From an uncultured virus (IMG/VR IMGVR_UViG_3300027754_000074) (lineage: Duplodnaviria > Heunggongvirae > Uroviricota > Caudoviricetes): a stretch of DNA of 64,000 bases. Positions 1 through 23,164 of the stretch are shown one piece after another (within the stretch, counting starts at the first letter, position 1; the number at the start of each line of letters is the position of its first letter). The notes beneath the pieces were generated by a model. The model searched no databases. It had not been told where the DNA came from and saw only the letters and a list, made by a program, of their open reading frames with translations. The stretch is from IMG/VR virus record IMGVR_UViG_3300027754_000074. One strand, written 5' to 3'. The position numbers and the translations under genes are program-made.

Positions 1-771
1 AAACACATCGAAGCCGTCTACCAAGCGGCCCACGCGGCATGGCCGGCGAAGTGGGCGCAGGCTGCAATCCTCGACGTGAGCCTACTCCGGCGTGCTTGCG
101 AGAAGGCAGGCGTCGCCATCGACCGCGTGAAATCAAACCCCCGCCACACCGCCGCTCGCCGCAACCACCATATCCGCGTCGGCGGCACGTTCTACACGCC
201 GGGCGGGCGTCGGGGCACCGTGCTCGCGGAGGCACGCGGCGGGTACTACCGGGTACGCTGGTCGGACGGTACTGTGGGAACCGTGCAGGATAACGAATGG
301 GCCGCCTACCCTACCGCCGGGAGCCGGGCGAACCCCGCTACGCAGCTTCCCACAAAGGTCGGAGAAACGGTAAGCCTATCGGGATCGGGCGGAACGCTTC
401 ATGTGACGAAGACGAAGCGGAACGAATACCACGCGGCGGTTTCGGGCACCCGCTCCGCGACGTGGGGGCCGAGCGGCACACGCTGGGGAAACGCCCAAGA
501 AATGCAGGAAGATATTGCAAACTGGCTCCGAATGGGGGCTCTCCCTTTTTCGGGGGGCAACGTGCATAACCCTCGCTCGAACGGGCGGAAGACGTTTCGT
601 GTGCGCTTTCACTCCGCCGTAGGGCAAGGCTCCCGACTAAAGCAGGTTGTAGAGCGTTGGGGCGGAAAGGTCGGCGGGGGCGGAGTAGCTACGTTCTACG
701 GTGCCGACGATGCCGAACACGCCATGCGCCAAGCGGAAGGCTGGGGTATCGCAGGTGAGGTAATCAAGTAA
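1..771 (+). CDS. 5'-truncated multidomain protein with RxNP linkers
   Basis: Frame of ORF 76..771 is open back to base 1; contains KSNP, RRNH, RANP, HNPRSNG. Confidence 0.75.
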   Translation, partial: KHIEAVYQAAHAAWPAKWAQAAILDVSLLRRACEKAGVAIDRVKSNPRHTAARRNHHIRVGGTFYTPGGRRGTVLAEARGGYYRVRWSDGTVGTVQDNEWAAYPTAGSRANPATQLPTKVGETVSLSGSGGTLHVTKTKRNEYHAAVSGTRSATWGPSGTRWGNAQEMQEDIANWLRMGALPFSGGNVHNPRSNGRKTFRVRFHSAVGQGSRLKQVVERWGGKVGGGGVATFYGADDAEHAMRQAEGWGIAGEVIK

Positions 772-773
772 CC

Positions 774-1097
774 ATGCGCTCCCCGTCCTTCCGCCATTCT
801 ACCGAGGTACAGACCGTCCTTTTCGACGTGTCGGCGTTTACGCCGGCTACGGCGAAGACGTGGGCGCGGTCGCACGGTTTCCGGGCTCCGGCGGGGGACG
901 TGACCGCCCGCTACATCCGCCTCCGGCAGCGGGATCCGTCCGCGTACCGGGCGGGCACCTTCCGGACGATCACCCTGACCGATGGCGTGCAGGCGGTCGT
1001 CGGCGTGCCGAAGACCGGCGGGAATCTGAAGCCCCGTAAGAATCCTCCCGCTTCCCCCGCCGTGCTCGCGGCTAACGGGCACCGGGGGCGAGCGTGA
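774..1097 (+). CDS. Hypothetical protein; same domain as the C-terminus of the SNF2 ORF
   Basis: VQTVLF..W..SHGF..RLRQ..GTFRTITLTDGVQAVVG; ends with PRKNP. Confidence 0.8.
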   Translation: MRSPSFRHSTEVQTVLFDVSAFTPATAKTWARSHGFRAPAGDVTARYIRLRQRDPSAYRAGTFRTITLTDGVQAVVGVPKTGGNLKPRKNPPASPAVLAANGHRGRA

Positions 1098-2836
1098 CCC
1101 CCGGCTTTCAAGCGATCATCGCCGACGCTGCTGGGGCTGGCCTCACGGTCAAGCCGTATGGGGCGTCTGCTGTCATCGTCACCGGCAAGAAGGATAAACG
1201 CTTCAAGAAGGCGCAGTATTCTGTAGCCGTGATCCTCTGGGAGTCGGGGTGGGCGCAAGACGCGACCATCGATCTGGCCCATTCGCGCCTCGTTCGCCGC
1301 TTGCCCGAAGTTCGGGCGATGCTGGGGTTGCCCGCCGCTCCCGCTGCAAGTACCCGCCCCGATCTTGACGCCCGTGCCGCTGACCTGTTTGCGCGAATTG
1401 ACGAGGATAGGAAGCCCCGCAAGAACGCCGCCCCTCCCGAATATGTGCTGTGGGGCTTGCCAAAGGGCGCGACTGACGCTCTCCACCAGAAAATCCTATA
1501 TACGCAGGGGAAGACGATGGCGGATGTAGAGCGCGTCAAGAGGGCGGCGTCTCTCGACGGCTGGCACACGTTCCGGGTACAAACCCTCGACCTGTCGCAA
1601 CCGTTCAACGCGGGCGCGGCGTTCGCCGGAAGCGTTCGCAAGAACGCCGGGGGCTCGACGCGCCCGACGCGCACCGCACAGGTAACCGCCTACCTCGCGG
1701 CGCACGGCTTCCCCGGTCTGAAGCTCCACAAAGGCAACGGCTATCTCTACGTCAGCGGGGGCGGCTCCGAGACGTGGCCGGAAACCTCCGTAATGACCTA
1801 CCGCGTGAGCGATCAAACCCTCGATCAATGGCTATCCGATGTTCGCCGCTTGGCGGGCGGAGCGCGCCGCAACGGAAGCCTATCCGCCGCCCGCGCCCGC
1901 CTGCTGGCCGCGCAGGAGGCTTACGCCCTGCTCCGCCGCCACCACGGCGGTAGTATGATCGGCTGGGCGGAGTACAAACGCACCGTCGCCCGGATGTCGC
2001 CGGAGGCGATTTTGGCGGAGGCCCGCGAAGACGTGAACCGCCAAAACCCCCGCCGCAACACCGGCGCGGGGGCGCACTACGAAGAGGCGCGCACCGCAAT
2101 CCGGCGCGCAATTGCGGCTCGCGGAGCCCCCGACTACGACGCCCGCTACGTCGAGGCCGCGCACGCCCTGAATCGGGCGGAGCGCCACCGGGAGCAGACC
2201 GCCGCGTTTTTGGCCCCCCGTGGGAGCGTAGTCACCCCCCCGATGGCGACACATCACCCGTGGCGGCGGAACGCCGGGTATTCCCGGTCTACGCGCCCGC
2301 AGGTAACTTGCCCGAAATGCTACGGGGCGAAGCGGTTTTCCCCTTACGCGCATATCGCGGAGGGTATCTGTTTCACCTGTGGCGGAGCGGGGACGGTAGA
2401 CGAAACGAAGGAACGGGGCGGGACAATTACAACCCCGACCCCCGTAGCGAGCAAAACGGTGACCTTGCCGGGCTTCGGACAAGTGACGGTCACACGCAGC
2501 GCGGGTAGTCGCGGGAGCTTCAGAGCGGATTTTCCCTACGATTCAGACGCCTACGGGGGCGTGGTGTATTTCAACGTCCGCGACGGGCGCGTAGTGGACG
2601 CGGACACGGACAACTTTTCACCAAGCTACAAAGGCCAAAAAGCGGAGATCGTAGCGGGTTTGCAAGCCGCCCTGAAGCCCCGCCAGAATCCCCGCCGCAA
2701 CGGCGCGGAGCGCGTCACCGTGCCCGGAATGGGTACGGGCGTAGTCGTCGCGCACCGTCCCGGCGGGATGTGCGATATTCGCCTCTCCGGCGGGCAGGTA
2801 GTCCGCAAATCAAAATCCACCCTGAAGCCCGCGTAG
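1094..2836 (+). CDS. RxN-punctuated polyprotein including a CxxCxG zinc finger
   Basis: 580 aa; RKNA, RKNA, RRNG, RQNPRRNT, RRNA, RQNPRRNG; CPKCYG...CFTCGG. Confidence 0.85.
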   Translation: MTPGFQAIIADAAGAGLTVKPYGASAVIVTGKKDKRFKKAQYSVAVILWESGWAQDATIDLAHSRLVRRLPEVRAMLGLPAAPAASTRPDLDARAADLFARIDEDRKPRKNAAPPEYVLWGLPKGATDALHQKILYTQGKTMADVERVKRAASLDGWHTFRVQTLDLSQPFNAGAAFAGSVRKNAGGSTRPTRTAQVTAYLAAHGFPGLKLHKGNGYLYVSGGGSETWPETSVMTYRVSDQTLDQWLSDVRRLAGGARRNGSLSAARARLLAAQEAYALLRRHHGGSMIGWAEYKRTVARMSPEAILAEAREDVNRQNPRRNTGAGAHYEEARTAIRRAIAARGAPDYDARYVEAAHALNRAERHREQTAAFLAPRGSVVTPPMATHHPWRRNAGYSRSTRPQVTCPKCYGAKRFSPYAHIAEGICFTCGGAGTVDETKERGGTITTPTPVASKTVTLPGFGQVTVTRSAGSRGSFRADFPYDSDAYGGVVYFNVRDGRVVDADTDNFSPSYKGQKAEIVAGLQAALKPRQNPRRNGAERVTVPGMGTGVVVAHRPGGMCDIRLSGGQVVRKSKSTLKPA

Positions 2837-2852: not shown

Positions 2853-4256
2853 ATGCTGAATATCGCCCCCTTTCGTACCGCCTTGCAAGGCGTCCGATCC
2901 GAATCCGGAGAGCGGAACGCCGTGCAGCGTGTCCTCGACGCGAGCGGACACCGGAAGCTCCCGACCACCGAGCGCACCACGCTCGATGATGGGCGCTCCG
3001 CCCGCGTCTACCTGTGGCGCAACGTCGGCGCGACCGGCTGCGCCGTGGCGCTGATCGCTGGCCCCGAAGTGGTGGGCGACGTGCGCGTACTCTACCCGCA
3101 CACCGGCGGCTCAAAAGGCAACCTCTACGTCCCGGCGACCGGGAATAGCCCCGCCCTGACCGATTCCAAGACGGCCCGGCACAATCCCGCCGGGGGCGCA
3201 AGCTCCCTGAAGGCGCTTACCGCCACCGTTATGGGGCACGCGGGCGAGCAGGGGCAGGTCAACGCGGTAATCCGCGCCTTGGCGAGCCACGGCTACGCCG
3301 CCGCCGACCGCCCGGAGGTACACTCGACCACCGTTGACCGGTCAACGTACCGGATCTACCTGTGGCGGGACACCCCCTACGGCGATCACCTTGTCCTCTC
3401 GACCGGGCCGAGCTTCGAGCCGGCGTTGGCGCTCGCTTCGCAGATCCCGGCGGATCCGGGCGTCGGTTTCTACGTCAAGGCGCTGGTAGACAAGAGCCCG
3501 CGCACGCTGGCCGGAGCGAGCCGCGTAGCCTCCCGCGCCATGCCGAAGCCGACCCCGGCGGCGGAAGTGGCGACCGAGCGCGTAGCCCGCAAGGTGCGGA
3601 TCCCGAAGGCGAAGGTAGCGGAAGCCGCCGCCGCCGTGGCGGAGGCGGAGAACGCCCCCACCGTGACCGTGGCGCACGTCGAAGCCGTCGAAGAGGCCGC
3701 CGGGAACGGATGGGTGCCCTCCGCCGGCTTGACCGACGCGCAGGTAACGGCACGCGACATCGCCCGCGCCCGTGGGCGCAAGCTGTCTCAGGACGCCGAG
3801 GCGCAGCGGATTCAAGCTGTGGCAGACGAAGCGGCTACGACCATGCGGCGGATGCTGCTGAGTGGTAGCACCAGTCCCGCCGCGCAGAACAAGGCGGCGG
3901 ATGTAGTCGCAGAAGCCCGCGAGAAAATCCGTTCGATGATCGCTGGCAAAAGCGGCGGTCGCAAACACGATCTTCAGCGAATCGAAGACGGTTTGGTAAC
4001 GGAATTCAAGCGGATCCTCGCCATCGCGCAAGAAGACGAAGCGGCGAAGGTGGCAGCACGGGCGAAGCAGGCCGCCGAGCAGGACGCTTTGGAAGCGGCG
4101 CGGGCGGCAGAGCGCGAGGCGGCTTTAGTGAAGGCTCCGAAGGCTCCCCGCGCCCCGAAGGCGGCGAAGGCGGCCCCCCCTGTAGACGCCGCCGCTGCGG
4201 CGCGTGAGATGCAAGAGATGATTCAAGCCCTCCGGGCTATGCGAGGCGCATCGTGA
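2853..4256 (+). CDS. Hypothetical protein: duplicated N-terminal domain split by RHNP, Ala/Lys-rich helical tail
   Basis: NAVQRVL..RVYLWRN and NAVIRAL..RIYLWRD repeats. Confidence 0.85.
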   Translation: MLNIAPFRTALQGVRSESGERNAVQRVLDASGHRKLPTTERTTLDDGRSARVYLWRNVGATGCAVALIAGPEVVGDVRVLYPHTGGSKGNLYVPATGNSPALTDSKTARHNPAGGASSLKALTATVMGHAGEQGQVNAVIRALASHGYAAADRPEVHSTTVDRSTYRIYLWRDTPYGDHLVLSTGPSFEPALALASQIPADPGVGFYVKALVDKSPRTLAGASRVASRAMPKPTPAAEVATERVARKVRIPKAKVAEAAAAVAEAENAPTVTVAHVEAVEEAAGNGWVPSAGLTDAQVTARDIARARGRKLSQDAEAQRIQAVADEAATTMRRMLLSGSTSPAAQNKAADVVAEAREKIRSMIAGKSGGRKHDLQRIEDGLVTEFKRILAIAQEDEAAKVAARAKQAAEQDALEAARAAEREAALVKAPKAPRAPKAAKAAPPVDAAAAAREMQEMIQALRAMRGAS

Positions 4257-4555
4257 AGCTCCACAATCGTTTTTACCGGCATAATCCTATGGGGCTCGAC
4301 GATGTGATCGTGATCGCCCGGAAGATGGGCAAACTGAACCTCGCCGCTCTATTGGAGCAGGGCGGGCCTATGGCGGATGCCTTGCTCGCGGAAATCAACG
4401 CCGTGCTCGACGCCCCCGCCCCCGCCCCGCAGCGGGCGCTCACCGACCGCGAGGCGTGGCTGGAGCTTGCTTCCCTTGTCCCGCAGGCGTTCGCGGATCA
4501 ACCGGAAGCGGTGCAGAGCGCGCTGGTACGGGCGTTCCGCCAACAGGCGGCGTGA
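4253..4555 (+). CDS. Hypothetical protein (RHNP near N-terminus)
   Basis: GTGA overlap with previous stop. Confidence 0.65.
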   Translation: MKLHNRFYRHNPMGLDDVIVIARKMGKLNLAALLEQGGPMADALLAEINAVLDAPAPAPQRALTDREAWLELASLVPQAFADQPEAVQSALVRAFRQQAA

Positions 4556-4556
4556 C

Positions 4557-5012
4557 ATGGCAAAAGAACGCTTGATCCTTTCCCACGAAGCGAGACGCCA
4601 GATCGAGGCCGACGTGCAGGCTTTCATGGCAGACATGGAAGCGGCGGCGCGGCGTATGCCGGGGGCGTCCGTGTCGGCGTATGGGGGTTCATACGCCTCC
4701 GCCGGGTGGACGAAGACCCCGAAAAAGATCGAGGTGCCCGACATTTACGGCGCTGTTGACCTGAATAGTAACAACTACGTTGTCCTGTCGGCGTACATCG
4801 CGCCCGATTGGAACGCGGTGGATCGCGGGCAGCTTGCCTACATCCTGACCGTGTTCCAAGGCGGCACGTCTCGCAATTCCAAGGCAGCGCCCTACGTCCG
4901 GGCGCACGTCGCTCCCGGCGACCGGGTGGGCGGGTACATTTCGGATGCCTACGCGCAGGCGCTCGAAGCCTACCCCGTGCTGCGGAAAAACACCCGCCGC
5001 CATGCGCGCTAA
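4557..5012 (+). CDS. Hypothetical protein
   Basis: ATG just after upstream stop; ends LRKNTRRHAR. Confidence 0.7.
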   Translation: MAKERLILSHEARRQIEADVQAFMADMEAAARRMPGASVSAYGGSYASAGWTKTPKKIEVPDIYGAVDLNSNNYVVLSAYIAPDWNAVDRGQLAYILTVFQGGTSRNSKAAPYVRAHVAPGDRVGGYISDAYAQALEAYPVLRKNTRRHAR

Positions 5013-5049
5013 CCCCGCCCGTTCGCGGAATCCGAGCAAGGAGGCATAC

Positions 5050-5634
5050 ATGCGCCGCAACCCCATCCTAACGGACGTTCGCACGCTCACACGCGGGAAA
5101 CGGGATCGCTACCTGTACCCCGTGTGGAATATGATGGTTCTAAGTTACAAAGACATCGGCGTGCCCCACCAACACCCCGACGAGCTTTTGGCGGATTACG
5201 CGGTATGGGAAGTGGGTTTCGACGCGGACAAAGTGCCGCGCTCGTTCAACCTGTCTAAGCGTACTCCGAGGGGTCTGAAAAGCGCGGCGTCCGGATCGGA
5301 CGGTACGCTCGACGGGCGCGACACGATCAAGCACGGTATCGCCACCCGGTTTTTCAAGCCGGGGGTTTACGGCGAGGTATCCGAAAAGGTGGAGCGGATC
5401 GCAGCGCGAGCGGGAGCGCCCGCCGTATGCGCGTCCGAGGCGGGGCACGTTATCGGAAAATTCGTGTCCCCCGCCGACGACGGGCTGCATTACCGGCGCA
5501 TGATCACCGGCGTCGGGGAGCATACGAAGGTGCTTATGGGCCGCCCGAAGGGCACGCCCACAACGAGCTACGCGGAGCCGCATTGTCCCGTGCCGAACCC
5601 TAAGCGCAAGCGGCGGAAGCGCCGTGCGTGCTAA
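5050..5634 (+). CDS. Hypothetical phage protein, MRRNP start, basic tail
   Basis: AAGGAGG RBS before ATG 5050 (alternative start 5002, MRANP); ends PNPKRKRRKRRAC. Confidence 0.8.
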   Translation: MRRNPILTDVRTLTRGKRDRYLYPVWNMMVLSYKDIGVPHQHPDELLADYAVWEVGFDADKVPRSFNLSKRTPRGLKSAASGSDGTLDGRDTIKHGIATRFFKPGVYGEVSEKVERIAARAGAPAVCASEAGHVIGKFVSPADDGLHYRRMITGVGEHTKVLMGRPKGTPTTSYAEPHCPVPNPKRKRRKRRAC

Positions 5635-6469
5635 CCCCGCCCGCTTCGAGGCGTTCGCCTCCGCTCCGCTGCGGGCGTGGCTCGCCGTGCCCGCGCACGC
5701 GGCGGAGGTGCGCGCTATCGTCGCCGCGCCCGCCCGCGAGTACCGCTACGGCGCGCAGTTTCGCCCGCCCGGCTACGCCACGGTGCCGAACGGTTTTATC
5801 CGCATAGACCCTCCGGTAGAGGGAGAACGGCAGACACGGCACGGGGTCGTCGTCTACGATCACCCGCTGACGCAGGAAGAGGTCACCGGCTATGAGCTTG
5901 TCCCCTATATGCCGCTCGATGAAGTGGTGTCGCGCCTGTACGATGCCGTTTCGAGATACGGGGACGCCTACGCCGAATCGATCCGGAAAGGCGACGTGGC
6001 GCTACTACGCTCCCCCCTTGGCTCTCGCTTCGACCGGCTGAAAGTCTACACCGATGTCCCCTACGAGCATATCGTACCGATGGTCGCGGATGAGATCCTA
6101 CGGAGGCACCCCGCGCCCCGCTCCGGGCCGTTTCAGGTCGTGGTGCAAATCTCTAAGGGCTTCCGAGACGAAATGGACGCCCTCGAATCGGACACCTACG
6201 ATCCGCGCAGCAGCAGCGCAGCGCACGGCGAATTTGCCGACGCCGTGGTGGCTTCGCGGGGCGGCGTGCTGACGTTGACCGAGGGGGCGGCGCGGTACGC
6301 CGTCTCCCCGAATGGGGCGCTCCACAACAGCATTGACATATGGACGGATCAAGAAAAGCAAGCCCGCAATAAAGCGAATACGCGAGCGCGGCTGAAAGGC
6401 TGGATCGCGGAAGCGAAAGCCTTGGACGCTACGATCACGGCGGCGCTCCGCGACCACAAAGGGGCGTAG
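5624..6469 (+). CDS. Protein with DarA C-terminal-like domain and MRANP leader
   Basis: YRYGAQFRPPGYATVP...HGVVVYDHPLTQEEVTGYELVP resembles DarA_C. Confidence 0.7.
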   Translation: MRANPARFEAFASAPLRAWLAVPAHAAEVRAIVAAPAREYRYGAQFRPPGYATVPNGFIRIDPPVEGERQTRHGVVVYDHPLTQEEVTGYELVPYMPLDEVVSRLYDAVSRYGDAYAESIRKGDVALLRSPLGSRFDRLKVYTDVPYEHIVPMVADEILRRHPAPRSGPFQVVVQISKGFRDEMDALESDTYDPRSSSAAHGEFADAVVASRGGVLTLTEGAARYAVSPNGALHNSIDIWTDQEKQARNKANTRARLKGWIAEAKALDATITAALRDHKGA

Positions 6470-7773
6470 TGCGCGCTAACCCCGCCCGCTTCGAGGCTTA
6501 CGCCTCCGCTCCGCTGCGGGCGTGGCTCGCCGTGGGAAAGAACGCGGCGCGGGTTGACGCGGTAATCGCAGGTGCGTTAGCATATGCGAAACCGGAGTCT
6601 CGCATGACCGCCCCCGTGAAGTTTGACGCCCCCGCCCTGCGACACCTGACCGTCGAACAGGTAGAGAATTTTCCGGAGGGTACGATCCTCCAAGATGAGG
6701 CGGGCACCCGCGCAATAGTGGGTCGCTACTTCAACCGGGGGCTCCGAATCGAAGCCGCCGGCACGCACGGCACCGACCGCGCCGTGTCGCAGGCGACCGC
6801 TACGGAGATCGCGCAGGGCGGCCCGTGGCGCATCGAGGCATACGCGCCCCGAACAAAATACCTGTCCCGAATCGCGTACATCGACCTCGACGGCACCGGG
6901 AGGAAAATGTGGGTCGCGGTGCCTTCGGCTTCCGAGGCAGCGCGGTACAACAAACAGGCGGAGGCGTGGAAAAAAGCCGGGTATCCGTCCGGATCCGCTC
7001 CGAGCGCACCGGGGGTTTACTACGTCCGACATAAGGGTGTAGAGCACGCGATACATACCAGTTACTTTCACGACGACACGACGGATTGGACGCGGTTGGA
7101 TGCCCGCCCGACGCGCCGGGCGGAAGCCGCAAAGACCGCCGACCGGCGAAAGCTCTCGCCGGGCGCGGAGCGGGCGCTCGAAACGGCGGTACTGTACGTC
7201 CTCCCCGCTCCGGGCGAGTACGCGCTCACCGCCTCTGAGGTAGTGTCGGATGTACTGTCGATATTGACCGAGCACGGGAACGTGTTTTCTCAGATGCGGG
7301 CTGAGAACAAGGTGAGTAGCTACCCGTGGGAAACCGCGTTCACCCCCACCGGCGACGACGCCGCCTTGTTGGAAGCCGCAGAGTACAGCAAACAGGTACA
7401 GACCCGATTGATCGAGGCGTCGTTGCGCCGACTGGTCAAGGCGGAATGGGCGCAAGAGGCGTACAACGCCCGGCAGAAAACCAACGGGTTTACGACGGGC
7501 AAGCACGGTCTGTCTTCCCGCGAGCGCGAGACGGCGATCCGCTCCGGGGATTATATCTCCCCGGCATACGCGGCGGCGGAGAACGCCGAGAAGCGGCTGA
7601 TGCGGAATCATAACTACTACCAGCTTCCGGAATACAAAGCGTTGCAGGCGGCTAAAGACGCCATGAAGCGCGCTTCCGCTACTGTGGCTCACCCGTTCGC
7701 TACCCGTGCCGACGTGCCGGCGCTGGCTGCGGCGGTCGAACACCTGACCACGCTTGCCCGCGAGCTATCGTGA
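6469..7773 (+). CDS. Hypothetical protein with MRANP leader
   Basis: 434 aa; first ~21 aa nearly identical to ORF 5624. Confidence 0.8.
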   Translation: MRANPARFEAYASAPLRAWLAVGKNAARVDAVIAGALAYAKPESRMTAPVKFDAPALRHLTVEQVENFPEGTILQDEAGTRAIVGRYFNRGLRIEAAGTHGTDRAVSQATATEIAQGGPWRIEAYAPRTKYLSRIAYIDLDGTGRKMWVAVPSASEAARYNKQAEAWKKAGYPSGSAPSAPGVYYVRHKGVEHAIHTSYFHDDTTDWTRLDARPTRRAEAAKTADRRKLSPGAERALETAVLYVLPAPGEYALTASEVVSDVLSILTEHGNVFSQMRAENKVSSYPWETAFTPTGDDAALLEAAEYSKQVQTRLIEASLRRLVKAEWAQEAYNARQKTNGFTTGKHGLSSRERETAIRSGDYISPAYAAAENAEKRLMRNHNYYQLPEYKALQAAKDAMKRASATVAHPFATRADVPALAAAVEHLTTLARELS

Positions 7774-7853
7774 CTTGCAGGATGCCCGGAAACGGCCCTC
7801 TACGGGCACACGGGCTCGAATCCGGGTGCTACCCTACCTCGCCCCTTTCCGAT

Positions 7854-7895
7854 AGCTTCCCCGATTATTCTACCGGTGTAAATATGTCCGATACC
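7854..7895. repeat. 42-bp palindrome family, copy 1 (left arm and core)
   Basis: AGCTTCCCCGATTATTCT-ACCGGT. Confidence 0.8.
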
Positions 7896-9173: not shown

Positions 9174-9359
9174 ATGAAGACCCCCCGTATCGTACCCCCC
9201 GCGAAGCCGTTTGCCGTGGTCGCCCGCGCTATCCGGATCCTCGAATCCCGCTTCGACCGGATCCTCGTTACGGAGCCCGCGTCACCGGCGCGGGCGGCTA
9301 CGTTGCGCGCTCTCGAAGAGCGCCGTACCGCGCTCGCTGATAGTATCGGAGCCTGCTAA
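9174..9359 (+). CDS. Small hypothetical protein
   Basis: AAGGA RBS; TAATG coupling to next gene. Confidence 0.55.
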   Translation: MKTPRIVPPAKPFAVVARAIRILESRFDRILVTEPASPARAATLRALEERRTALADSIGAC

Positions 9360-14075: not shown

Positions 14076-17000
14076 AGCGTAACCCCGACGCCGTAGCCCG
14101 TTTCCGTCCGCTCGCTTCCCCCGCGCTCGCCGCATGGCTCGACGGCAACGGGGAGGCGGTAGAGGCGGCGGCGTTCGGCGCGCTCCGGTACTCGGAGGCG
14201 GGCTCGATGGTGGTAGCCGCCCCCGTGGTCAAGGGGGCGGGGGATATGTCCTTCGAGGCGGCTATCGCGCTCGCCCGGTCGTGGGCGGAACAACTCGGAG
14301 ATATGCCGGCCCCGACGCCGAAAGAGGCAGACGACGCGGGCGCGAGCGTGTCTACCTACTCCGCCCTGCAAAACTACGGGGCGGTGCCCCCGTCGCTACT
14401 CGATTCGATGCCCGTTGAAATGCACCTCGCGGCTATTGAAACGCTCCGCCTACACTCGAAGACGCAGATCCCCCGCGACCTGTGGCAAGCCGCCTACGCC
14501 GCCATCCGCCACCAGTACGAGCAGGAGCGCGGAGCGCCCGCCCCCGAAGGGCGCTCCCGCCTGTACGCCCCGATGAAGAGCACGGGGCGGCTCGAAGACG
14601 GCACGGCTTACGAAGCCGACGAAAAGGGCGCGGTCGCGCTGGGTTTTCCATTATACAAACGGGGCGGGAAACAGGTAGGCGATCTATTGCTCGATGCCGG
14701 ATTGGCGCGCAAGGTGCAAGGCCGGTTCGGGGAGCAGATCAAGATTGATCCCGACGTAGGACGCTGGGAAAAGCGCAACGATGCGAGCGGAAAAGATGCG
14801 TGGTGGTTGATCGTAAACCCGCTGCGGGTGGCGGAGGTTGCCGCCGTGGTCGAGGGGCAGTACCCGGCGCTCGCCGCCGCGCTCCGGCAAAACGCGCCTA
14901 TCTGGCGAGCGGCGGCGGAAAAGGCCGGCGTCGTGCCGCGTGTAGCGACGGCGACGGCGGAAGCCGTAGCCGCTCCGGCGGTAGACTTGGCAAGCCTAAA
15001 CCCCGAAGGGGGAGCGGTGCCGGGGATGCGCTGGGAGTGGTCGCCGGGATCCCTGTCCGTTGACCTACTGTTCGACCGGGGCGCAAAAGCCCTGCTGTCT
15101 GCGGGCGGTGTCGCGTTTTCGTGGGCGACCCGGAACCGACACACGGGGGAGCCCGCCGACCGCCGCACGCCGAGCGCGGACATCGCATGGTGGGTGCGCG
15201 TGCCTACGACGCAGCTTGACGCGCTGGGACGGGCTACGATGCCGCTTCCCGAGGCTCACGCCGCCGTGCTCACCCTATCCCCGTCGTGGGGCGGAACCCG
15301 ATCCGCCCTGAAGCAGAGCCGCGAAGAGGGCGTCACCGAAGAAGGATCGTGGCGCACGCTTCCAAACGGAACGGTGCAGCTTTACACGGTCTACAAACAA
15401 TCCGCGATGGGCTGGCAAAAAGGCGCTATCGGCGCGGTTGTCAAAATGTCAAAAGACATGGGGGGAAAGTGGTACTTTTCCTTTCCCGAGAAGCGGGCAA
15501 CGCTGGTCGCGGCGGCGCTCCGCGAGCACTACCCCCGGCTGGCGGAGGCGCTGGGGCGCTCGTTCGGCGGGGTGGCGCGCACGATTGACGAAGAGGCCGG
15601 CAAGTGCGATCCGCTGGTCGATATGTCGAACGCGCCAAACCCGGCGGCGGTAAAACACCCTATCGGGCAGGCGGTGATCGAGGACGTGATCAAGGCGCTG
15701 AAGCTGCGGCTCCCGCACGGGATGATCCCCTACCCGTATCAGACGGTCGGTATCGCGTTCTCGAAATTGGCCGGATACCGGGCGCTGATCGGGGACGCGA
15801 TGGGCCTCGGAAAAACGATCCAAGCTATCGGATGTCTCGCCGTAGATCCGGAGCAATTGCTACCGGCTATCGTGGTTTGCCCCGCGAGCGTGCTCTACAA
15901 CTGGCAGGCCGAAATCAACAAGTGGCTACCCTCCGTGCCCGTGATCGTTTTGGCTACAGGCAGCGCGCCGCTCCCGCCGAAGGGCTGGAAAGGCGTCATG
16001 GTGGTAACGTGGAATCAGCTAGTATCTCGCGGCCCGGCGCTCGAAGCGTGGGGGCTGAAGTGCATTATTGCCGATGAGGCGCACAAGGCGAAAGAGCCTA
16101 CAACAAGCTGGACAAAGGTATTGGCCGCCCTATCGGAGACGGTGCCGCACATCCTCATGCTGACGGGTACGCCGGTCAAAAACCGGGTGATCGAGCTTTG
16201 GAGCTTGCTACGGATGCTCGATCCAGACAGCTACGGGTCGAAAACGGAGTTTGGAAAGGAATATACCAACGTCGAAACCGTCAAGATCGGCGGCGGGAAG
16301 ACCGCCACGAAGTACGAAGGCGGAAAGAACCTCGAAGCCTTGCAACAACGGCTCCGCTGCATCATGGTACGCCGGCTGAAAGAGGACGTGCTATCTGACC
16401 TTCCCCCGAAGCGGCGGGTATCGCTCGAAGTGGAAATTCCCGACAAGTCGCGGGCAGATTATGAGCGCGCCCGCGAGGAATTCGCGGATTGGCTGGAGGG
16501 GGCGTTGGAGCGCAAGATCAGCGCGCAGTACGTCAAAGACGGGATCGATCCGAAGTCGGCTACGGCGGAGATCCGGCAGGAGGTAGCGGAGCGCGCCGAG
16601 CGGGCGCTACGGGCGGAGCAACTGGTCAAGATCGGATACCTCCGGCGCTTGGTCGGCGTGGCGAAGATCGAGCCTGCGCTCGACAAGATCGAGGAATTCG
16701 TGGAGGCGGGGGAGCCGCTGGTCGTGTTCGCGGAGCACGCGGATGTCGTGCAGGGGATTCAAGAAGGGCTGAAAAAGGCAAAAATCAAGTTTGTAACGGT
16801 AGACGGGTCTACCTCTCTCGCGGCGCGGGAAGCGGCAAAAAACGCTTTTCAGGCCGGCGGCGTGGACGTGTTTATCGGCACGCAAGCGGCGAAAGAAGGA
16901 ATCACGCTCACCCGTGCTTCTAACACGCTTTTTGTAGAACGCTGGTGGACGCCGGGCGACGAAGAGCAGGCGGAGGATCGTATCCATCGTATCGGGCAGA

Positions 17001-17473
17001 AAAACGCCGCAACAATCTACTTTTTGCAGGTAGTCAACTCCATTGACGATCACCTGAGCCGGCTAGTCGAGTCGAAACGGGTAGTCGCCACAGGTGCCGT
17101 AGGCGGTAGCCATGTTGCGAGCAGCGCGCAGAGCGTCGAGGCCGGTTTGGGGGCGTTCGCCGCCGCCGTGGCACGGCGCGGGGGGCGGAAGGGGGACGCT
17201 ATTCCGAATCCCCGCACGCACGTTGCCGGTGCGCGCCCCCTACCGCCGGGACGGGTGATTCATGCCCTGCTTTTCCGCCGGGATACATGGTCGCACGCGA
17301 ATATCGCGCATTGGGCGCGGTTGAACGGCTTTTCAGCCGACGACCTCGAACGGATGGGCGGGTACACCCGTGCGCGGCAACGGGCGGTAAGTAAGTTCAA
17401 GCCCGGTTCTTTCCTGACCGTCCCCCTGACCGACAGCATATCCGCCGTGGTCGCGGAGCCGAAAAGCCGGTAG
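14072..17473 (+). CDS. SNF2/SWI2-family ATPase with KRNP leader and extra C-terminal domain
   Basis: DAMGLGKT, DEAH, LTGTP, QAEDRIHRIGQ. Confidence 0.92.
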   Translation: MKRNPDAVARFRPLASPALAAWLDGNGEAVEAAAFGALRYSEAGSMVVAAPVVKGAGDMSFEAAIALARSWAEQLGDMPAPTPKEADDAGASVSTYSALQNYGAVPPSLLDSMPVEMHLAAIETLRLHSKTQIPRDLWQAAYAAIRHQYEQERGAPAPEGRSRLYAPMKSTGRLEDGTAYEADEKGAVALGFPLYKRGGKQVGDLLLDAGLARKVQGRFGEQIKIDPDVGRWEKRNDASGKDAWWLIVNPLRVAEVAAVVEGQYPALAAALRQNAPIWRAAAEKAGVVPRVATATAEAVAAPAVDLASLNPEGGAVPGMRWEWSPGSLSVDLLFDRGAKALLSAGGVAFSWATRNRHTGEPADRRTPSADIAWWVRVPTTQLDALGRATMPLPEAHAAVLTLSPSWGGTRSALKQSREEGVTEEGSWRTLPNGTVQLYTVYKQSAMGWQKGAIGAVVKMSKDMGGKWYFSFPEKRATLVAAALREHYPRLAEALGRSFGGVARTIDEEAGKCDPLVDMSNAPNPAAVKHPIGQAVIEDVIKALKLRLPHGMIPYPYQTVGIAFSKLAGYRALIGDAMGLGKTIQAIGCLAVDPEQLLPAIVVCPASVLYNWQAEINKWLPSVPVIVLATGSAPLPPKGWKGVMVVTWNQLVSRGPALEAWGLKCIIADEAHKAKEPTTSWTKVLAALSETVPHILMLTGTPVKNRVIELWSLLRMLDPDSYGSKTEFGKEYTNVETVKIGGGKTATKYEGGKNLEALQQRLRCIMVRRLKEDVLSDLPPKRRVSLEVEIPDKSRADYERAREEFADWLEGALERKISAQYVKDGIDPKSATAEIRQEVAERAERALRAEQLVKIGYLRRLVGVAKIEPALDKIEEFVEAGEPLVVFAEHADVVQGIQEGLKKAKIKFVTVDGSTSLAAREAAKNAFQAGGVDVFIGTQAAKEGITLTRASNTLFVERWWTPGDEEQAEDRIHRIGQKNAATIYFLQVVNSIDDHLSRLVESKRVVATGAVGGSHVASSAQSVEAGLGAFAAAVARRGGRKGDAIPNPRTHVAGARPLPPGRVIHALLFRRDTWSHANIAHWARLNGFSADDLERMGGYTRARQRAVSKFKPGSFLTVPLTDSISAVVAEPKSR

Positions 17474-18226: not shown

Positions 18227-18434
18227 AGGGGAGAACGGCGCATAGAGTACGTTAGACGCGACGTTTCGCGTGGGCGCGCATGGTGCGCGCTACGCAAAAC
18301 GACGTGCGCGAGAATCGGCGTTCGCCGCCCCTTTGGCTAAAGCGTAGGTATAACCGCGCTTTCTCGAACACTTGTGATAATACGCATTATCGCAAGTTTG
18401 CCCCGGCGGCGGGGTTCGCCGTCCGGTGAAAAAG

Positions 18435-18533
18435 AAAGTAGCGGAATGTTTCGCATACGCCTTGCATATGCGAATGGTCTACGGTAGAAAGGGGATGTCG
18501 GATTCACCGACGCCAACCCCTGAGAGCAAAATG
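18435..18533 (+). repeat. Duplicated ~100-bp promoter/leader, copy A
   Basis: Near-identical to 19367-19466 up to the ATG. Confidence 0.85.
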
Positions 18534-18947
18534 CACGAACTTCTGACCGATTCCATCCTCGGCTACATCAACCCCGAAAACAGCAGCAGGGCTAAGGCCC
18601 GCGAAGCCCTCTATACCAGCATCCTAAACGCCCCGACGCTATCGGCGGCGTCCGCGATTGCCGGCGTCACCGGATACCGCGTAAGCTGGGGACGGTACGA
18701 AGAGAACCCGTACCATATGGAGGGGTGGCAAGTCATGGACGCATCCCGTCAGCGTTGTATGGCGATTTCTGTTTACCAAACGGCGCTCGTTTATGCCGTT
18801 GCGTTGCCTCGGCTGCGTTGCCCTGAGCGCCGCGCTCGATGCCGCCGCGTGGTGGAGAACTGCGCTCAGGCTATCGAGCATCGCGCATACAGTTTGTCCC
18901 GTACACAGCGCGAGGCCGATGCTGCGGAAGTGCGGGCGCTCATTTAG
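18531..18947 (+). CDS. Hypothetical protein (cassette gene A)
   Basis: ATG at end of repeated leader. Confidence 0.7.
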   Translation: MHELLTDSILGYINPENSSRAKAREALYTSILNAPTLSAASAIAGVTGYRVSWGRYEENPYHMEGWQVMDASRQRCMAISVYQTALVYAVALPRLRCPERRARCRRVVENCAQAIEHRAYSLSRTQREADAAEVRALI

Positions 18948-18966
18948 CCGATACTCCCCGATTACA

Positions 18967-18999
18967 CCCGCTCCGAAAGGGGCGGGCCTTTTCGTTTTT
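18967..18999 (+). terminator. Rho-independent terminator
   Basis: CCCGCTCC-GAAA-GGGGCGGG then T-rich run. Confidence 0.85.
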
Positions 19000-19028
19000 G
19001 ATATGGTAGGAACACCGCAGGAGATTCT

Positions 19029-19373
19029 ATGCTTGTTCGATACGGAGGTTACGGTGGGCGCACGGTGCAAGTCGTCGGCACGCTAAAGAACGGTTCTAAG
19101 CTCTACAAAATGACCTATACGACGGATAACAAAATCAGCGCGCCCGAATGGAAGCTCGTCGTTGTCGATGAGGTGAATGAGTACGGAACCGTTTTTGTGC
19201 GCGGGGCGTCCACAACGGAAATTCTCAGCGCGTACATTCCCGACGAGGGGGTGAGCCTGCCCATGAAGTACGCCCCCCGCGCTATCCGGCACGCGGAAAA
19301 GCCGGCATGGGAACCTGTGCGGGCGCTCATAGAAGCCCGCATAGCGCGACGGCTTGCCGCTCGAAAAAAGTAG
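19029..19373 (+). CDS. Hypothetical protein
   Basis: GGAG RBS; 114 aa. Confidence 0.65.
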   Translation: MLVRYGGYGGRTVQVVGTLKNGSKLYKMTYTTDNKISAPEWKLVVVDEVNEYGTVFVRGASTTEILSAYIPDEGVSLPMKYAPRAIRHAEKPAWEPVRALIEARIARRLAARKK

Positions 19374-19466
19374 CGGAATGTTTCGCATACGCCTTGCATA
19401 TGCGAATGGGGCGGCGTAAAGGGTGGGTGTCGGATTCACCGACGCCAACCCCCCGAGAGCAAAATG
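19367..19466 (+). repeat. Duplicated ~100-bp promoter/leader, copy B
   Basis: Near-identical to 18435-18533. Confidence 0.85.
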
Positions 19467-19940
19467 AAAGCCTTGACCCTCCGTGTTTCCATCCCCGCCC
19501 TTGTTGCCAACTACAACGGCGACCGCACCCTCGAAGAGTGTACGCAGGCGGTCGTCGCCGCGCTCGCCGCCCCCTCGATGTCCGACGTGCTCCACGTCGC
19601 GGGCACCACCACGGATCCTACGGACATCGCCGCCGTCTACTACGCCGGCACGGATACCCGCGTCGAAAACGCGGCGGCGACGGAGATAAAGGCCCGGTTT
19701 TGGGCCTCGCTCGCTCAGGCGTTCCGGGTGCTCGACGTGGTAGAAGGCTACCGGTGCGGGGAAGCCTGCGCCCGCGCCCTCGGTGTCGGAAACACCTTTC
19801 TGGGCTCGATGGGGCACGCCGAAGCGGCGGGGCTCATCGTCAATACCACGAAGTACCGGGGGTTTCTGATCGGCTTCGCGGGCGCGTTGCCTGAAACCGT
19901 GGCGACTACTTTAGAGGGGGTACTGGTCGAGTACCGGTAG
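19464..19940 (+). CDS. Hypothetical protein (cassette gene B)
   Basis: ATG at end of repeated leader. Confidence 0.75.
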   Translation: MKALTLRVSIPALVANYNGDRTLEECTQAVVAALAAPSMSDVLHVAGTTTDPTDIAAVYYAGTDTRVENAAATEIKARFWASLAQAFRVLDVVEGYRCGEACARALGVGNTFLGSMGHAEAAGLIVNTTKYRGFLIGFAGALPETVATTLEGVLVEYR

Positions 19941-19953
19941 ACGGTAGCAGCGC

Positions 19954-19988
19954 GGCCCGCTCCGAAAGGGGCGGGCCTTTTCGTTTTT
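19954..19988 (+). terminator. Rho-independent terminator (same sequence as 18967)
   Basis: GGCCCGCTCCGAAAGGGGCGGGCCTTTTCGTTTTT. Confidence 0.85.
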
Positions 19989-20312: not shown

Positions 20313-20356
20313 TTTGCACGCGGGCGTGCTCGCCGGAGATCGAGTAAGCTCCCCCC

Positions 20357-21904
20357 GTGCGCCCGTACCTCTCCCTTGCGACCATCGACCGCTACGAGGC
20401 GGATATGGCCCGTCGCGGCGTCTCCGATGTTGCGCGTAGCCGCCGGGGTTTCCTGACCGCCTACCGCCGGGCGGGCGGGGATCCTGACCGCCTCTCCGAA
20501 TACTGGCAGGTACGCCGGGACGGGTTTATCGCCCGGCACATGGCGCAGGTACGCGAGCGCGGGGAGCCGCTCTTCGAGGACGGCGGCGAGCCTACCCGGC
20601 GACACCTTGCCCTCATCGCGTGGGCGTACTCCCCCGCCCCTGACCGCTTGCCCCGCCACAATCCGGAGCGCGCCTTGACATTCACGATTCACACCACGGC
20701 GGGGGATCTTGCCCGCGCTGTGTTTGGGTGCGACGTATCCGAGTTCAACCGAGGTTTTTACAAAGGCACCTCAATACCTCTGCGCGCTGTGCCCCCCGAC
20801 GCGCCGGTGACGGTAACAGGCAAAACGTCCCTCGCGGCTATCGAAGACGGACAAGGCGGCTGGATAGCTGACCGGTTCGGCCCGACGCTGGGGGCTCGCC
20901 AGATTAGGCGGCTTATAGATGCGGAGAAGCGCCACAATCCGGCGAGCGCCGAGCGCACCCGTCCGGAGCTATGGGCGCGGATCGTCCGAGAGGTTACCGC
21001 CGGTGCTCAGGGCGGTCTACCCGGTCAATGGTCGGCGCGAAAAGCGCAATTGGCGACGGCGCTCTACCAGAAGCGCGGCGGCGGCTACATCGGCCCGAAG
21101 TCGCCCGACAACGCGCTAACGGGGTGGACGCGGGAAAGGTGGCGTACAAAATCCGGTCGCCCGTCGCTGGTCACCGGCGAACGCTACCTCCCCGAAGCCG
21201 CTATCGAAGCTCTGTCCCCGCAGGAGTACGCCGCGACAACCCGCGCCAAGCGGGCGGGGCTTGCCCGTGGCGAGCAATACACCCCGCAGCCGGAGCGCAT
21301 CGCGGAGCGGGTACACAGTCTGCGCCGGAACGCCGGAGCCCGCGCTATCGCCCGCGAACTCGTCAACCATTGTGGCTGGCTGAAAGCGGACGCCCGTGCG
21401 ATCACCGGCAAGAAGTGGCGCAAGAGCATGGCGAGCCCCCGCGCCGCCCTGTCTCCGGACGCGCAGCGCGTCTTACTGCGGGCGCTCGACGCCGAGGTGG
21501 ATCCGGACGTGGCGCTAGTGCTCCGTCTATGCCTTGTGCTGGGGCTCCGGATCGCGGAGGCGACGATGGTAGACCGCTCCCGCGTCACGCCCGAAGGGCT
21601 CCGCGTGTTCGGGAAGGGCTCGAAGTGGCGTACCGTCCCGTGGTCGGTAGACCGGGGCGCAAAGGCGCTCGCGGCCCGTCTCCCGGCGGTCGCCACCGTT
21701 ACCCCCGGACGGGCGCAACGCGCCTGCACACGGCTTGCGGCGGCGCATCCGGAGCTTTCCGCCTTGACCCCGCACGTTCTCCGCCACACGTTCGCCACGA
21801 ACGCGCTACGCTGCTGCATGGATCCGAAGGCGCTACAGGCGGCTTTGGGGCACGATAAATTCAATACGACGCTAACCTACCTGCACACGCTGGGGGATGT
21901 ATGA
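20357..21904 (+). CDS. RxN-punctuated polyprotein ending in a tyrosine recombinase catalytic domain; middle DUF5872-like domain
   Basis: GLRIAE, GKG, HVLRHTFAT, LGH, TLTY; GQWSARKAQL..GGGY; linkers RHNP, RHNP, RRNA. Confidence 0.85.
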   Translation: MRPYLSLATIDRYEADMARRGVSDVARSRRGFLTAYRRAGGDPDRLSEYWQVRRDGFIARHMAQVRERGEPLFEDGGEPTRRHLALIAWAYSPAPDRLPRHNPERALTFTIHTTAGDLARAVFGCDVSEFNRGFYKGTSIPLRAVPPDAPVTVTGKTSLAAIEDGQGGWIADRFGPTLGARQIRRLIDAEKRHNPASAERTRPELWARIVREVTAGAQGGLPGQWSARKAQLATALYQKRGGGYIGPKSPDNALTGWTRERWRTKSGRPSLVTGERYLPEAAIEALSPQEYAATTRAKRAGLARGEQYTPQPERIAERVHSLRRNAGARAIARELVNHCGWLKADARAITGKKWRKSMASPRAALSPDAQRVLLRALDAEVDPDVALVLRLCLVLGLRIAEATMVDRSRVTPEGLRVFGKGSKWRTVPWSVDRGAKALAARLPAVATVTPGRAQRACTRLAAAHPELSALTPHVLRHTFATNALRCCMDPKALQAALGHDKFNTTLTYLHTLGDV

Positions 21905-22221
21905 GACGGAATACCCATTTTCAGGACGCCTACGATTGGGTGGCGGACGTGCGCGAATACACGAATAGGATCCAGCATGGCCCCGTGAAGGAAACCGACC
22001 TCGCCGGGCAAATGCACATCAACGAAAGGGCGGCGCAGGTAGAAAAGGCGTTGGACGATCTGAATCGCGTACTCCCCGGAGGCAGCGTACACCTACTATA
22101 CGAAGCGTTGACGTTGCCCCTGCGAACCTACCTATCTTTGATCGCTGTCCCCCGCGCTTTGTGGGCGGAGCCCGTAGTGCGCCGCAGCATACTACTCCCT
22201 CGCCGCAACGGGCGCGGGTGA
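21901..22221 (+). CDS. Hypothetical protein (RRN at both ends)
   Basis: MRRNT... PRRNGRG. Confidence 0.65.
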   Translation: MRRNTHFQDAYDWVADVREYTNRIQHGPVKETDLAGQMHINERAAQVEKALDDLNRVLPGGSVHLLYEALTLPLRTYLSLIAVPRALWAEPVVRRSILLPRRNGRG

Positions 22222-22225
22222 CCCC

Positions 22226-23164
22226 GTGAGTACCCGCAACCCCGCCATAGCGCGCCGCACGATGGGGAAGACCTACACCCCCGCCCGGCTCACCGACCGC
22301 CGCGAACACTTCACGGCGGAGGACACCCGCCGGGCGCAGCGCGCCGTGGCGGAGGTGTTCGCCGGGCGCGGCGTACCGCTGGGGCAAGGGAACTTCGGGG
22401 CGGCGTTCCGCGTCGAGGTAGACGGTGCCCCCGTGCTGGTCAAGATGGGGAGCCGGCGCGATATGCACACGCGGACACCCGGCGATATGTACGGGTGGCT
22501 AACGAGCAAGTACGCGCAAGGGGGGCGAAGCCTCGAAACGGCGCGGCGGGAGCTAATCCACGAAGCCGGCGTCAGTAACGAGCTATGGGCGCTGGGGCAT
22601 CGCGTAGTACCCGCCACGATCTACGCCGAATATAAGGGGCGGCCCGCCCTTGTCCGCGAGTACGGGCACATCCCGGCGAACATCACCCCGCAGGAGTACG
22701 ACAAATTAGCCCGCGACCTCGCCCGCGTGATCGAGGATGGATGGGCGGTAGCTGACGAGCTATTGATCGCCCGGCGCGCTGACGGTAGCGTTTTCGTCGC
22801 GGACGTGGGACTGTGGCACCCGTATAATCCCGGCCCGGAGGGTACGGGGTTGTCCTATTCGTGGTCTACGGCGGCGGGGCAAGCCTACGACGGGCTTTGC
22901 ACGTTGCTTTCCAATCTCAGCCAACAACAGGCATGGGCTACGGGAGCCGTGCCGTGGTCGCGCAGCGGAACCCTTCGGGGGCAACCGACCCCCTCCGCGT
23001 TGGAACTGAAAATCCAACGCTTGAAGCTCGCAGACAAGCGGGCGGAAAATGACGATATGTACGAGGGTTTACCCCCCGCGATAGCGTTACGAAACCTAAA
23101 GTTTGTCACCGACGCTATCGAAAAAAGCGAGGCGGCCCGCCGCGCTGTGGGGCTACCCGTATGA
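22226..23164 (+). CDS. Protein kinase-like fold protein with TRNP leader
   Basis: LGQGNFG Gly-loop, VLVK, ELIHE, VFVADVG. Confidence 0.7.
   Translation: MSTRNPAIARRTMGKTYTPARLTDRREHFTAEDTRRAQRAVAEVFAGRGVPLGQGNFGAAFRVEVDGAPVLVKMGSRRDMHTRTPGDMYGWLTSKYAQGGRSLETARRELIHEAGVSNELWALGHRVVPATIYAEYKGRPALVREYGHIPANITPQEYDKLARDLARVIEDGWAVADELLIARRADGSVFVADVGLWHPYNPGPEGTGLSYSWSTAAGQAYDGLCTLLSNLSQQQAWATGAVPWSRSGTLRGQPTPSALELKIQRLKLADKRAENDDMYEGLPPAIALRNLKFVTDAIEKSEAARRAVGLPV

Follow-up and report, generated by a model that had tools for sequence, protein, structure and literature searches.

Polyvalent proteins, described in 2017 by Iyer, Burroughs, Anand, de Souza, and Aravind, combine disparate activities in one chain and are predicted to be injected together with the phage DNA; the same paper predicted their proteolytic processing by zincin or assemblin peptidase domains (PMC5512222). 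Its main text names no junction peptide (the words "linker," "proline," and "boundaries" have 0 occurrences each). Here, we describe a short peptide, Arg-x-Asn-Pro (R-x-N-P), that very probably acts as a selected seam between the modules of such proteins in a 64-kb stretch of DNA (the window) from the uncultured Caudoviricetes virus IMGVR_UViG_3300027754_000074. An earlier reading of this DNA (the original prediction) held that R-x-N-(P/A/G/T) words punctuate the viral proteins, mark them for packaging or cleavage, and so allow small effector domains to be strung into polyproteins, the last of which matches the published polyvalent-protein concept (PMC5512222).

The source of the window is a large, high-GC, uncultured phage (about 65% guanine plus cytosine [GC]), with essentially all long open reading frames (ORFs) on the + strand. 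A block at 1 to 23 kb, together with two ORFs at 56 to 58 kb, encodes Dar-like or "polyvalent" anti-defence proteins made from small swappable modules. As in polyvalent proteins, a single polypeptide can contain at least two unrelated domains (ORFs 1094, 20357, and 56816, each with several independent cassettes), as is also the case for proteins of 900 to 2500 aa in relatives, and hallmark domains of that class occur in the window or its relatives, namely, DarA_C, ddrB-ParB, ART-PolyVal, RadC, PcfJ, and the methylase-helicase dyad. Unlike in polyvalent proteins, many of the modules here are separate small genes that still bear the seam.

The Dar system of phage P1 (DarA, DarB, DdrB, Hdf, and Pro) has the same protein types, with similarity to the window at the domain level only. 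According to the published accounts, Dar proteins are packaged into the P1 capsid, the N terminus of DarA is removed by the head protease Pro (PMC12810830), and the first 30 residues of DarB suffice to target cargo to the capsid, while the Dar proteins are described as lacking a consensus N terminus (PMC9024508). In contrast to phage P1, a leader consensus is common to four proteins of the window. The capsid protein of phage P1 is reported to be cut after Glu (E120|S121), whereas the candidate site here has Asn.

Short recognition words are also familiar from other head proteases, such as T4 gp21 and phiKZ gp175, whose cleavage motifs end in Glu. The SPN3US head protease is reported to cut many head proteins at one motif, and propeptides can hold several sites (PMC10052503). 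In such codes, a single word singles out many head and ejected proteins, which are cut within the prohead. The peptide described here resembles the T4 gp21, phiKZ gp175, and SPN3US gp245 codes in being one short word that recurs at the borders of many proteins. It differs from the T4 and giant-phage codes in that those have Glu at position P1 and mostly serve to remove N-terminal propeptides, whereas here, Asn and then Pro stand between independent modules. The Asn-Pro dipeptide at the proposed chain break is also shared with the asparagine peptide lyases (FlhB/YscU N|PTH and reovirus mu1 N|P), but these have a single site in a folded self-cleaving domain rather than dozens of linker sites with free flanks. 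Our literature search, which covered R-x-N-P-type words, Asn prohead-protease sites, and phage Asn-Pro autocleavage, found no description of the motif.

A peptide kept at module borders

To measure enrichment, we took the 77 + strand ORFs as the gene set, with block A comprising 27 of them (1-23164 plus 56208-58018; 8063 amino acids [aa]), the remaining 50 ORFs (11789 aa) serving for comparison, and 1000 within-protein shuffles as the null. R-x-N-P occurs 18 times in block A against a shuffle mean of 1.28 (maximum, 7; 0/1000 shuffles reached 18) and once in the other 50 ORFs, where 1.65 occurrences were expected. The looser form R-x-N-[PAGT] gave 35 matches versus 6.86 expected in block A and 7 versus 8.60 in the other ORFs; for [RK]-x-N-[PAGT], the corresponding values were 45 versus 10.05 and 13 versus 11.23. 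Because the block boundaries had been drawn after the motif was seen, an unbiased scan of all 8000 patterns of the form a-x-b-c was made over the 77 ORFs, in which only the low-complexity P-x-P-P ranked above R-x-N-P (19 versus 2.80; Poisson P = 1.8e-10). The original observation therefore holds both against shuffles and against the rest of the ORFs. The description "virus-wide" was too broad, as only about one ORF in three has the motif: R-x-N-[PAGT] is carried by 18 of the 27 block ORFs and by 6 of the 50 outside.

We also agree with the earlier view that the motif is kept as a peptide, because the corresponding DNA pattern keeps to a single codon phase and the codons are varied. CGNNNNAAYCC occurs in the block ORFs 18 times in codon phase 0, against 0 and 5 times in the other phases and 1 to 2 times per phase on the opposite strand. 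The Arg codons of the motif are CGC (18), CGG (8), CGT (4), and CGA (2), its Asn codons are AAC (25) and AAT (7), and its Pro codons are CCC (13), CCG (4), and CCT (2). A DNA repeat is ruled out by this combination of phase and codon variety, and 17 of the 18 R-x-N-P contexts are non-redundant. The residue preference is sharp in both directions: in the block, Pro follows [RK]-x-N 24 times (2.0 expected), and Asn precedes the Pro of the motif 24 times (2.0 expected). The alternatives A, G, and T, which had been written into the fourth position from the start, are found there in this phage and not in the wider family. At the +2 position after the motif, R is present in 23, A in 22, K in 9, and S in 8 of 98 contexts, and the flanks are rich in Ala, Pro, and Gly, like ordinary linkers.

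The placement of the motif is close to that first described. It stands directly after the start at 5050, 5624, 6469, 14072, and 21901 and slightly later, after MHYP, at 9359 and, after MY, at 56232 and 56843; the ORF at 22226, which had been counted with these, begins V-S-T-R-N-P and does not belong to them. The start codons of the proteins with an N-terminal motif are credible, and Shine-Dalgarno-like sequences, read by eye from the DNA, precede most of them. Between unrelated domains, the motif forms six clusters in ORF 1094 and three in ORF 20357 and occurs once each in ORFs 2853, 7770, and 8528, as the original prediction had it, and it precedes the C-terminal tails of ORFs 774 and 10805. 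The protein starting at 56843, credited with about five sites, has six matches, four of them R-type and two K-type.

Comparison with homologues places these sites at points of exchange. ORF 1094, a 580-aa cassette polyprotein (1094-2836, + strand, as are all motif-bearing ORFs located below), has its six junction clusters encoded by motif codons that start at 1418, 1637, 1865, 2039, 2051, 2264, 2681, and 2693. In its homologues, the same cassettes recur as mosaics in varying order, and a given cassette has varied cassettes upstream of it, yet always comes directly after R-x-N. With the identical protein P0023 excluded from the count, 19 of 25 local-homology borders in ORF 1094 lie no more than 5 residues from a motif Asn, compared to 3.64 for random sites, and 0/10000 randomisations reached 19. 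An unrelated cassette protein at the other end of the window, ORF 56816/56843 (56843-58021; MY-RRNA at 56849 and further sites at 57194, 57425, 57626, 57794, and 57806), has 6 of 10 borders within 5 aa of a site versus 1.59 expected (P = 0.008).

ORF 20357 is a tyrosine recombinase with three N-terminal cassettes (20357-21904), in the order domain A, RHNP (20654), cassette B, RHNP (20930), DUF5872-like domain, RRNA (21323), and integrase. Its first 325 residues have 1964 relatives at E values of ≤1e-3 among 1.84 billion cluster representatives searched; these relatives represent two mobile domains, with match borders at the ORF 20357 sites (residues 100, 192, and 323). One relative, P0040, is 97 to 98% identical to ORF 20357 and lacks exactly residues 104 to 195, which is the 92-residue cassette B between the two RHNP copies, both encoded by the same 12 bases. 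In P0018, a DarA_C module is fused to a ParB module via a doubled motif, and in four further fused forms, the ParB module is flanked by RRNP at either end. Gain, loss, fusion, and splitting of modules all take place precisely at the motif, and we hold with high confidence that module borders are marked by it as a seam peptide under selection.

Structure models agree within their limits. In the model of ORF 20357 (mean predicted local distance difference test score [pLDDT], 68), sites 1 and 2 are at low-pLDDT segments and site 3 is at a helix break. Domain A of this model scores 87 to 97, site 1 coincides with a fall below 50 at residues 102 to 106, and site 2 is inside a segment below 50 (residues 190 to 206). 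In the model of ORF 1094, three confident islands begin or end at sites 112|113, 323|324, and 528|530. A fold search with the ORF 20357 model gave no match at an E value of ≤0.001; the best was mimivirus R596, sulfhydryl oxidase entry 3td7 (E = 0.026; 104 aligned columns; root mean square deviation, 1.6), and this match would fall on domain A (20357-20656), modelled as a confidently folded helical module.

Four of the proteins with an N-terminal seam also have in common a leader of ~30 residues with a conserved Leu-Arg-x-Trp-Leu core, which comes after the seam in each case. These are the DarA_C-domain protein ORF 5624 (5624-6469; V-RANP at 5627-5638), the 434-aa protein ORF 6469 (6469-7773; V-RANP at 6472-6483), the ddrB-ParB-like protein ORF 9359 (9359-10804; MHYP-RRNP at 9371-9382), and the 1144-aa DarB-like SNF2 helicase ORF 14072 (14072-17473; M-KRNP at 14075-14086). 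A leader profile built from ParB-family homologues, without the window's own protein, matched all four at their N termini (ORF 9359, 2.6e-14; SNF2 protein, 2.6e-6; ORF 6469, 3e-6; DarA_C protein, 5e-5), and the next-best match had an E value of 0.66. The leader is more likely than R-x-N-P to be the capsid-targeting element, and it could be a cargo-loading tag like that proposed for DarB of phage P1.

The seam among relatives

In the 150 listed representatives of the search with the ORF 20357 N-terminal part, [RK]-x-N-P occurs 150 times versus 14.7 expected; this is the form that the motif takes in the wider family, with N-P as its invariant core. Among these representatives, ART-PolyVal, RadC, and DUF5872-like domains have the motif on either side, in many orders and in unrelated architectures (ART-PolyVal is present in 19 of the 60 longest, and RadC and PcfJ are also found in relatives). 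At the borders of internal DUF5872-like domains, N-P falls within a 15-residue span at 30/59 upstream and 32/66 downstream borders, against a background of 6.2%. When the domain is internal, N-P lies at most 16 residues upstream in 34 of 61 cases, versus 1 of 43 when the domain is at the protein N terminus, a difference that favours a function at junctions over a tag carried by each protein. The stand-alone DUF5872-like proteins start approximately at the residue after the Asn position, usually with Met and then a small residue; this fits a break after Asn that would leave free and excised modules with similar mature ends.

Enrichment also extends to several related loci. We counted R-x-N-P in 17 loci with relatives of the ParB-like protein and found 7 versus 0.89 expected in L002, 7 versus 1.24 in L005, 7 versus 0.35 in L006, 6 versus 0.69 in L009, 6 versus 0.64 in L011, 4 versus 0.78 in L012 (39% GC), and 3 versus 0.21 in L008. 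L009 looks to be a near-duplicate of L002, as the two agree fully in ORF coordinates and motif contexts across their 14.9 kb of shared sequence. In L010, 1 occurrence was found versus 0.66 expected, and the short loci showed no enrichment. A second partial relative, G002, had 11 versus 2.3 expected. The motif persists in relatives from 39% to 70% GC, and a low-GC relative writes the seam as K-K-N-P. Its carriers in the relatives are giant ORFs of 900 to 2500 aa beside DarB-like methylase-SNF2 proteins; giant SNF2 proteins are present in L005 and L012, and the one in L005 also has an Eco57I methylase. As a control, we used 80 viral loci obtained from a small alignment of stand-alone DUF5872-like proteins, and these loci, which hold mostly stand-alone genes of this kind, had almost no excess (93 versus 61 expected). 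Given the locus counts and this control, the seam belongs to particular lineages and fused architectures and not to the DUF5872-like domain.

Among uncultured phages, this seam code, with Asn as its key residue, is widespread. For the thousands of dark metagenomic proteins of this type, it provides a rule for locating module borders (two modules alone have 1964 relatives), and it would explain why modules are exchanged so freely in such proteins. It also offers exact residues as candidates for the cutting of polyvalent proteins that was predicted in 2017, for which the literature searched gives no general cut site.

Several side observations came from the same searches. An SNF2 query in viral contigs returned only an unrelated 26%-GC locus (L001), and PHROGs gave almost no matches on the relatives. 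L002:2911-4326 (the same ORF is in L009) encodes an Arg-rich 472-aa protein with six RRRN[T/A/G] or RRSNA words within 120 residues; this protein may belong to the core or associate with DNA, with the same code punctuating it. At the place of N-P before the DUF5872-like domain, G-S-(R/A) or A-N-S-R is found in P0072, P0088, P0089, P0092, P0095, P0097, P0149, P0042, and P0044, which hints at other seam words in other lineages.

Processing, docking, and other explanations

Fused modules have one or two seam copies per junction, and stand-alone modules of this phage have the seam directly behind the initial Met or immediately ahead of the stop; we read these terminal copies as half-seams carried along with mobile modules. 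We propose that the seam is the recognition site of a phage maturation protease, with positions P3, P1, and P1' occupied by Arg, Asn, and Pro (or another small residue), respectively, and cutting there would free the modules inside, or en route into, the capsid. A module would then function in any position, and joining, splitting, or exchanging modules at the seam would come close to being neutral. Capsid targeting would be the task of the shared leader and not of the seam. On the strength of the sharp residue profile, the one or two sites per junction, and the precedent of P1, T4, and the giant phages, we favour such a lineage-specific processing site with Asn at P1, giving it a probability of roughly 45%; packaging, cleavage, the scissile bond, and the enzyme are all things that we infer. 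Tentatively, this may be extended to a large clade of uncultured phages whose head or virion protease would cut after Asn in R-x-N|P, a specificity undescribed for phages. The code would let anti-defence modules plug in, move, and be released in the capsid, and the seam words of each lineage would be matched to its own protease.

A number of observations weigh against processing at the seam. Site 3 of ORF 20357 is a helix break (pLDDT, ~76) that ends the confident DUF5872-like core and has no clear disordered linker. The model of ORF 1094 is of low quality (mean pLDDT, 49.5; 339 of 580 residues below 50), and the placement of sites at low confidence in it counts for little because over half of the chain is of low confidence. 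Among the relatives, L016 has the same proteins yet no motif (0 versus 0.88 expected), and the same proteins in P0006 to P0017 have no motif at the N terminus. Most proteases disfavour Pro at P1'. Cutting at sites that lie 4 to 8 residues from the start or 2 to 17 from the stop would free only tiny peptides, and the argument that these copies are carried along with the module is needed for them. P0169, the sole representative fused to a head protease (a domain-A module, a 2'-5' RNA ligase domain, and an HK97-type Peptidase_S78 head protease in one chain), is without any N-P. Finally, Pfam and PHROGs recognised no capsid, portal, terminase, or protease family within the 64-kb window, and no head protease or capsid family was found in the relative G001. 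The structural genes are, for this reason, probably outside the window or too divergent; both records are partial, the window's own contig being at least 75.7 kb and G001 35% complete.

The window has a single zincin-like candidate, a small HExxH protein of ~134 aa (24759-25175, + strand). It has a SprT-like match at E = 0.014 and Atlas neighbours in the U49, M78, and M48 families at 0.87 to 0.89, and it is kept in G001 and G002 (L020:7731-8135 and L101:10001-10396), which also carry seams. With a weak Pfam match and presence in three related phages, this protein is at most a lead for the processing enzyme. It could alternatively be an ImmA-type protease, as it adjoins the integrase. Atlas look-ups gave weak peptidase leads for ORF 24411 and none for ORF 52161. 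Should the enzyme be found, a phage protease specific for Asn could become a tool, together with its short portable site.

The seam might instead stay uncleaved and serve for docking or loading by binding a partner common to the modules, such as the capsid inner surface, the scaffold, the portal, or packaged DNA. Each module would then be retained in the head or travel with the DNA in uncut form. Its location at exposed places (termini and linkers), its position right after the start Met in eight proteins of this phage, the frequent Arg or Lys at +2 (R in 23 and K in 9 of 98 contexts), and the Arg-rich tails that follow it in ORFs 10805 and 4945 would all suit such a role, as would the reported contacts of P1 Dar proteins with capsid and DNA (PMC12810830). 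The packaging tag of the original prediction is upheld to the extent that the carriers (DarA_C, ddrB-ParB, and DarB-like SNF2 proteins) are gene kinds known to be packed or injected. It is weakened by the stand-alone DUF5872-like copies, 42 of 43 of which are without the motif, although stand-alone proteins should be those most in need of a loading tag. The motif is also present at essentially every junction rather than once per protein, and the separate shared leader already suits the targeting role, so that we regard docking as unlikely. We consider it improbable that a passive linker convention or a junction scar explains the seam, which would then be a tolerated linker or helix cap inherited with the modules and recognised by nothing. 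Such a convention would account for the Ala/Pro/Gly-rich flanks, Asn-Pro is a common way to start a helix, and the identical 12 bases of the RHNP copies around cassette B could be microhomology for insertions and deletions. Yet a helix directly follows the motif at just 1 or 2 of 9 modelled sites, the other 50 ORFs, which also have linkers, contain 1 occurrence versus 1.65 expected, and a 10- to 14-fold excess of the tetrapeptide at 39 to 70% GC with varied codons requires selection on the residues themselves.

Cleavage could also take place without a phage protease, either by attack of the Asn side chain on its own bond to Pro, in the manner of asparagine peptide lyases or of slow spontaneous Asn-Pro breakage, or by a host protease after injection. 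N-P is indeed the invariant core in the wider family (150 versus 14.7), and Asn-Pro autocleavage is known in FlhB/HrcU-type proteins and in reovirus mu1. The known self-cleaving sites, however, need a folded catalytic context and more conserved residues, whereas the residues after N-P vary here and the sites are in linkers; the replacement of Pro by A, G, or T in this phage is likewise a misfit with a single Asn-Pro chemistry, and we find this explanation very improbable. Least credible of all is a signal at the DNA or translation level, whether a repeat, a recombination site, or a 2A/SecM-type ribosome pause or skip, which would be in keeping with the exchange of modules at the motif and with an R-x-x-P spacing that recalls arrest peptides. 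It is largely refuted by the varied codons and the limitation of the DNA pattern to one codon phase; moreover, the motif persists from 39% to 70% GC as KKNP or RRNP, and action through the ribosome exit tunnel is impossible for sites 2 to 5 residues from the start. The residues also misfit an N-glycosylation sequon, an AT-hook, and 2A-like skipping.

Individual carriers and neighbouring genes

The motif block probably begins upstream of the window, as the first ORF (1-771), open at its 5' end, already carries RANP (325-336) and RSNG (574-585). It is followed by a 107-aa module, ORF 774 (774-1097), which ends in KP-RKNP (1035-1046), the site before its tail. The domain of ORF 774 is also the C-terminal domain of the SNF2 protein (ORF 14072), and ORF 774 is fused to ORF 1094 in the homologue P0023 and is the first module of the mosaics P0024 to P0029. 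A run of five G is present at 1084-1088, just ahead of the ORF 774 stop, while the sequence of P0023 (687 aa; 100% identity across ORF 1094) is what six G would give, with the two ORFs joined into one. A sequencing difference, phase variation of natural origin, or a -1 slip site may account for this.

The 467-aa ORF 2853 (2853-4256) has one RHNP (3177-3188), which divides its N-terminal part from a repeated part. ORF 4377 (4377-5012) ends in RKNT (4983-4994) and then a short basic tail. ORF 5050 (5050-5634) begins M-RRNP (5053-5064) after an AGGAGG box and has a basic C-terminal tail; an extra in-frame M-RANP lies at 5002-5016, before the 5050 start. ORFs 7770 (7770-8531) and 8528 (8528-9145) contain paralogous domains, with the motif after the domain in the former (residues 50 to 155, then RRNP at 8244-8255) and before it in the latter (RRNP at 8834-8845, then residues 109 to 203). 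In ORF 10805 (10805-11431), RRNP (11378-11389) comes immediately before the Arg-rich C-terminal tail. The 106-aa ORF 21901 (21901-22221) starts with M-RRNT (21904) and ends with RRNG-RG (22201). At the far end of the window, ORF 56232 (56232-56837) carries MY-RRNA (56238) and, before a DUF7249-like domain, RSNP (56610).

Within the first 17 kb, Pfam and PHROGs recognised DarA_C (ORF 5624), a ddrB-like ParB domain (ORF 9359), a multi-helix-turn-helix protein, a pentapeptide-repeat protein, and the 1144-aa SNF2 helicase. DarA_C (PF18789) in ORF 5624 scored 45.6 bits, above the 27-bit cut-off; against the full DarA model, the same ORF scored 29 bits, far under the 350-bit cut-off. The ddrB-ParB match was just below its cut-off (26.2 versus 27.6 bits), and PF18763 is annotated on 21 of 22 homologues of the ParB-like protein of the window. 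The 1144-aa protein matched SNF2 and Helicase_C, with no methylase match. Two tyrosine recombinases were recognised at 20 to 24 kb, and the same databases recognised a replication module at 27 to 45 kb (AAA_30/UvrD helicase, VapE-type primase, PD-(D/E)XK nuclease, DEAD helicase, family-A DNA polymerase [PolA], and N6/N4 methylase).

The window has no near relative among GenBank phages by megablast, and no tRNA or Rfam match was found in its 64 kb. Its PolA is 28% identical to the best match, and its ParB-like protein has one weak match among cultured phages.

Several other features of the window were seen in passing. ORF 22226-23164 (312 aa) has, by eye, an apparent protein-kinase glycine loop followed by a V-x-K lysine; no Pfam or NCBIfam match backs this reading. 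ORFs 46250-47227 and 47146-48213 are adjacent paralogues (56% identical over 329 residues) without a family match. ORFs 52161-54056 and 54429-55136 are kept in G002 (47% and 51% identity); they lie near the motif ORFs at 56 to 58 kb and may be core or virion genes. The stretch 18432-19988 has a lower GC content (0.60), and its ORFs look doubtful. It contains an 89-base direct repeat (18432-18520 and 19364-19452; 87% identical) and two terminator-like hairpins of 33 bases, identical to each other and with T-runs (18967-18999 and 19956-19988), and as a whole it resembles a duplicated unit of ~0.95 kb.

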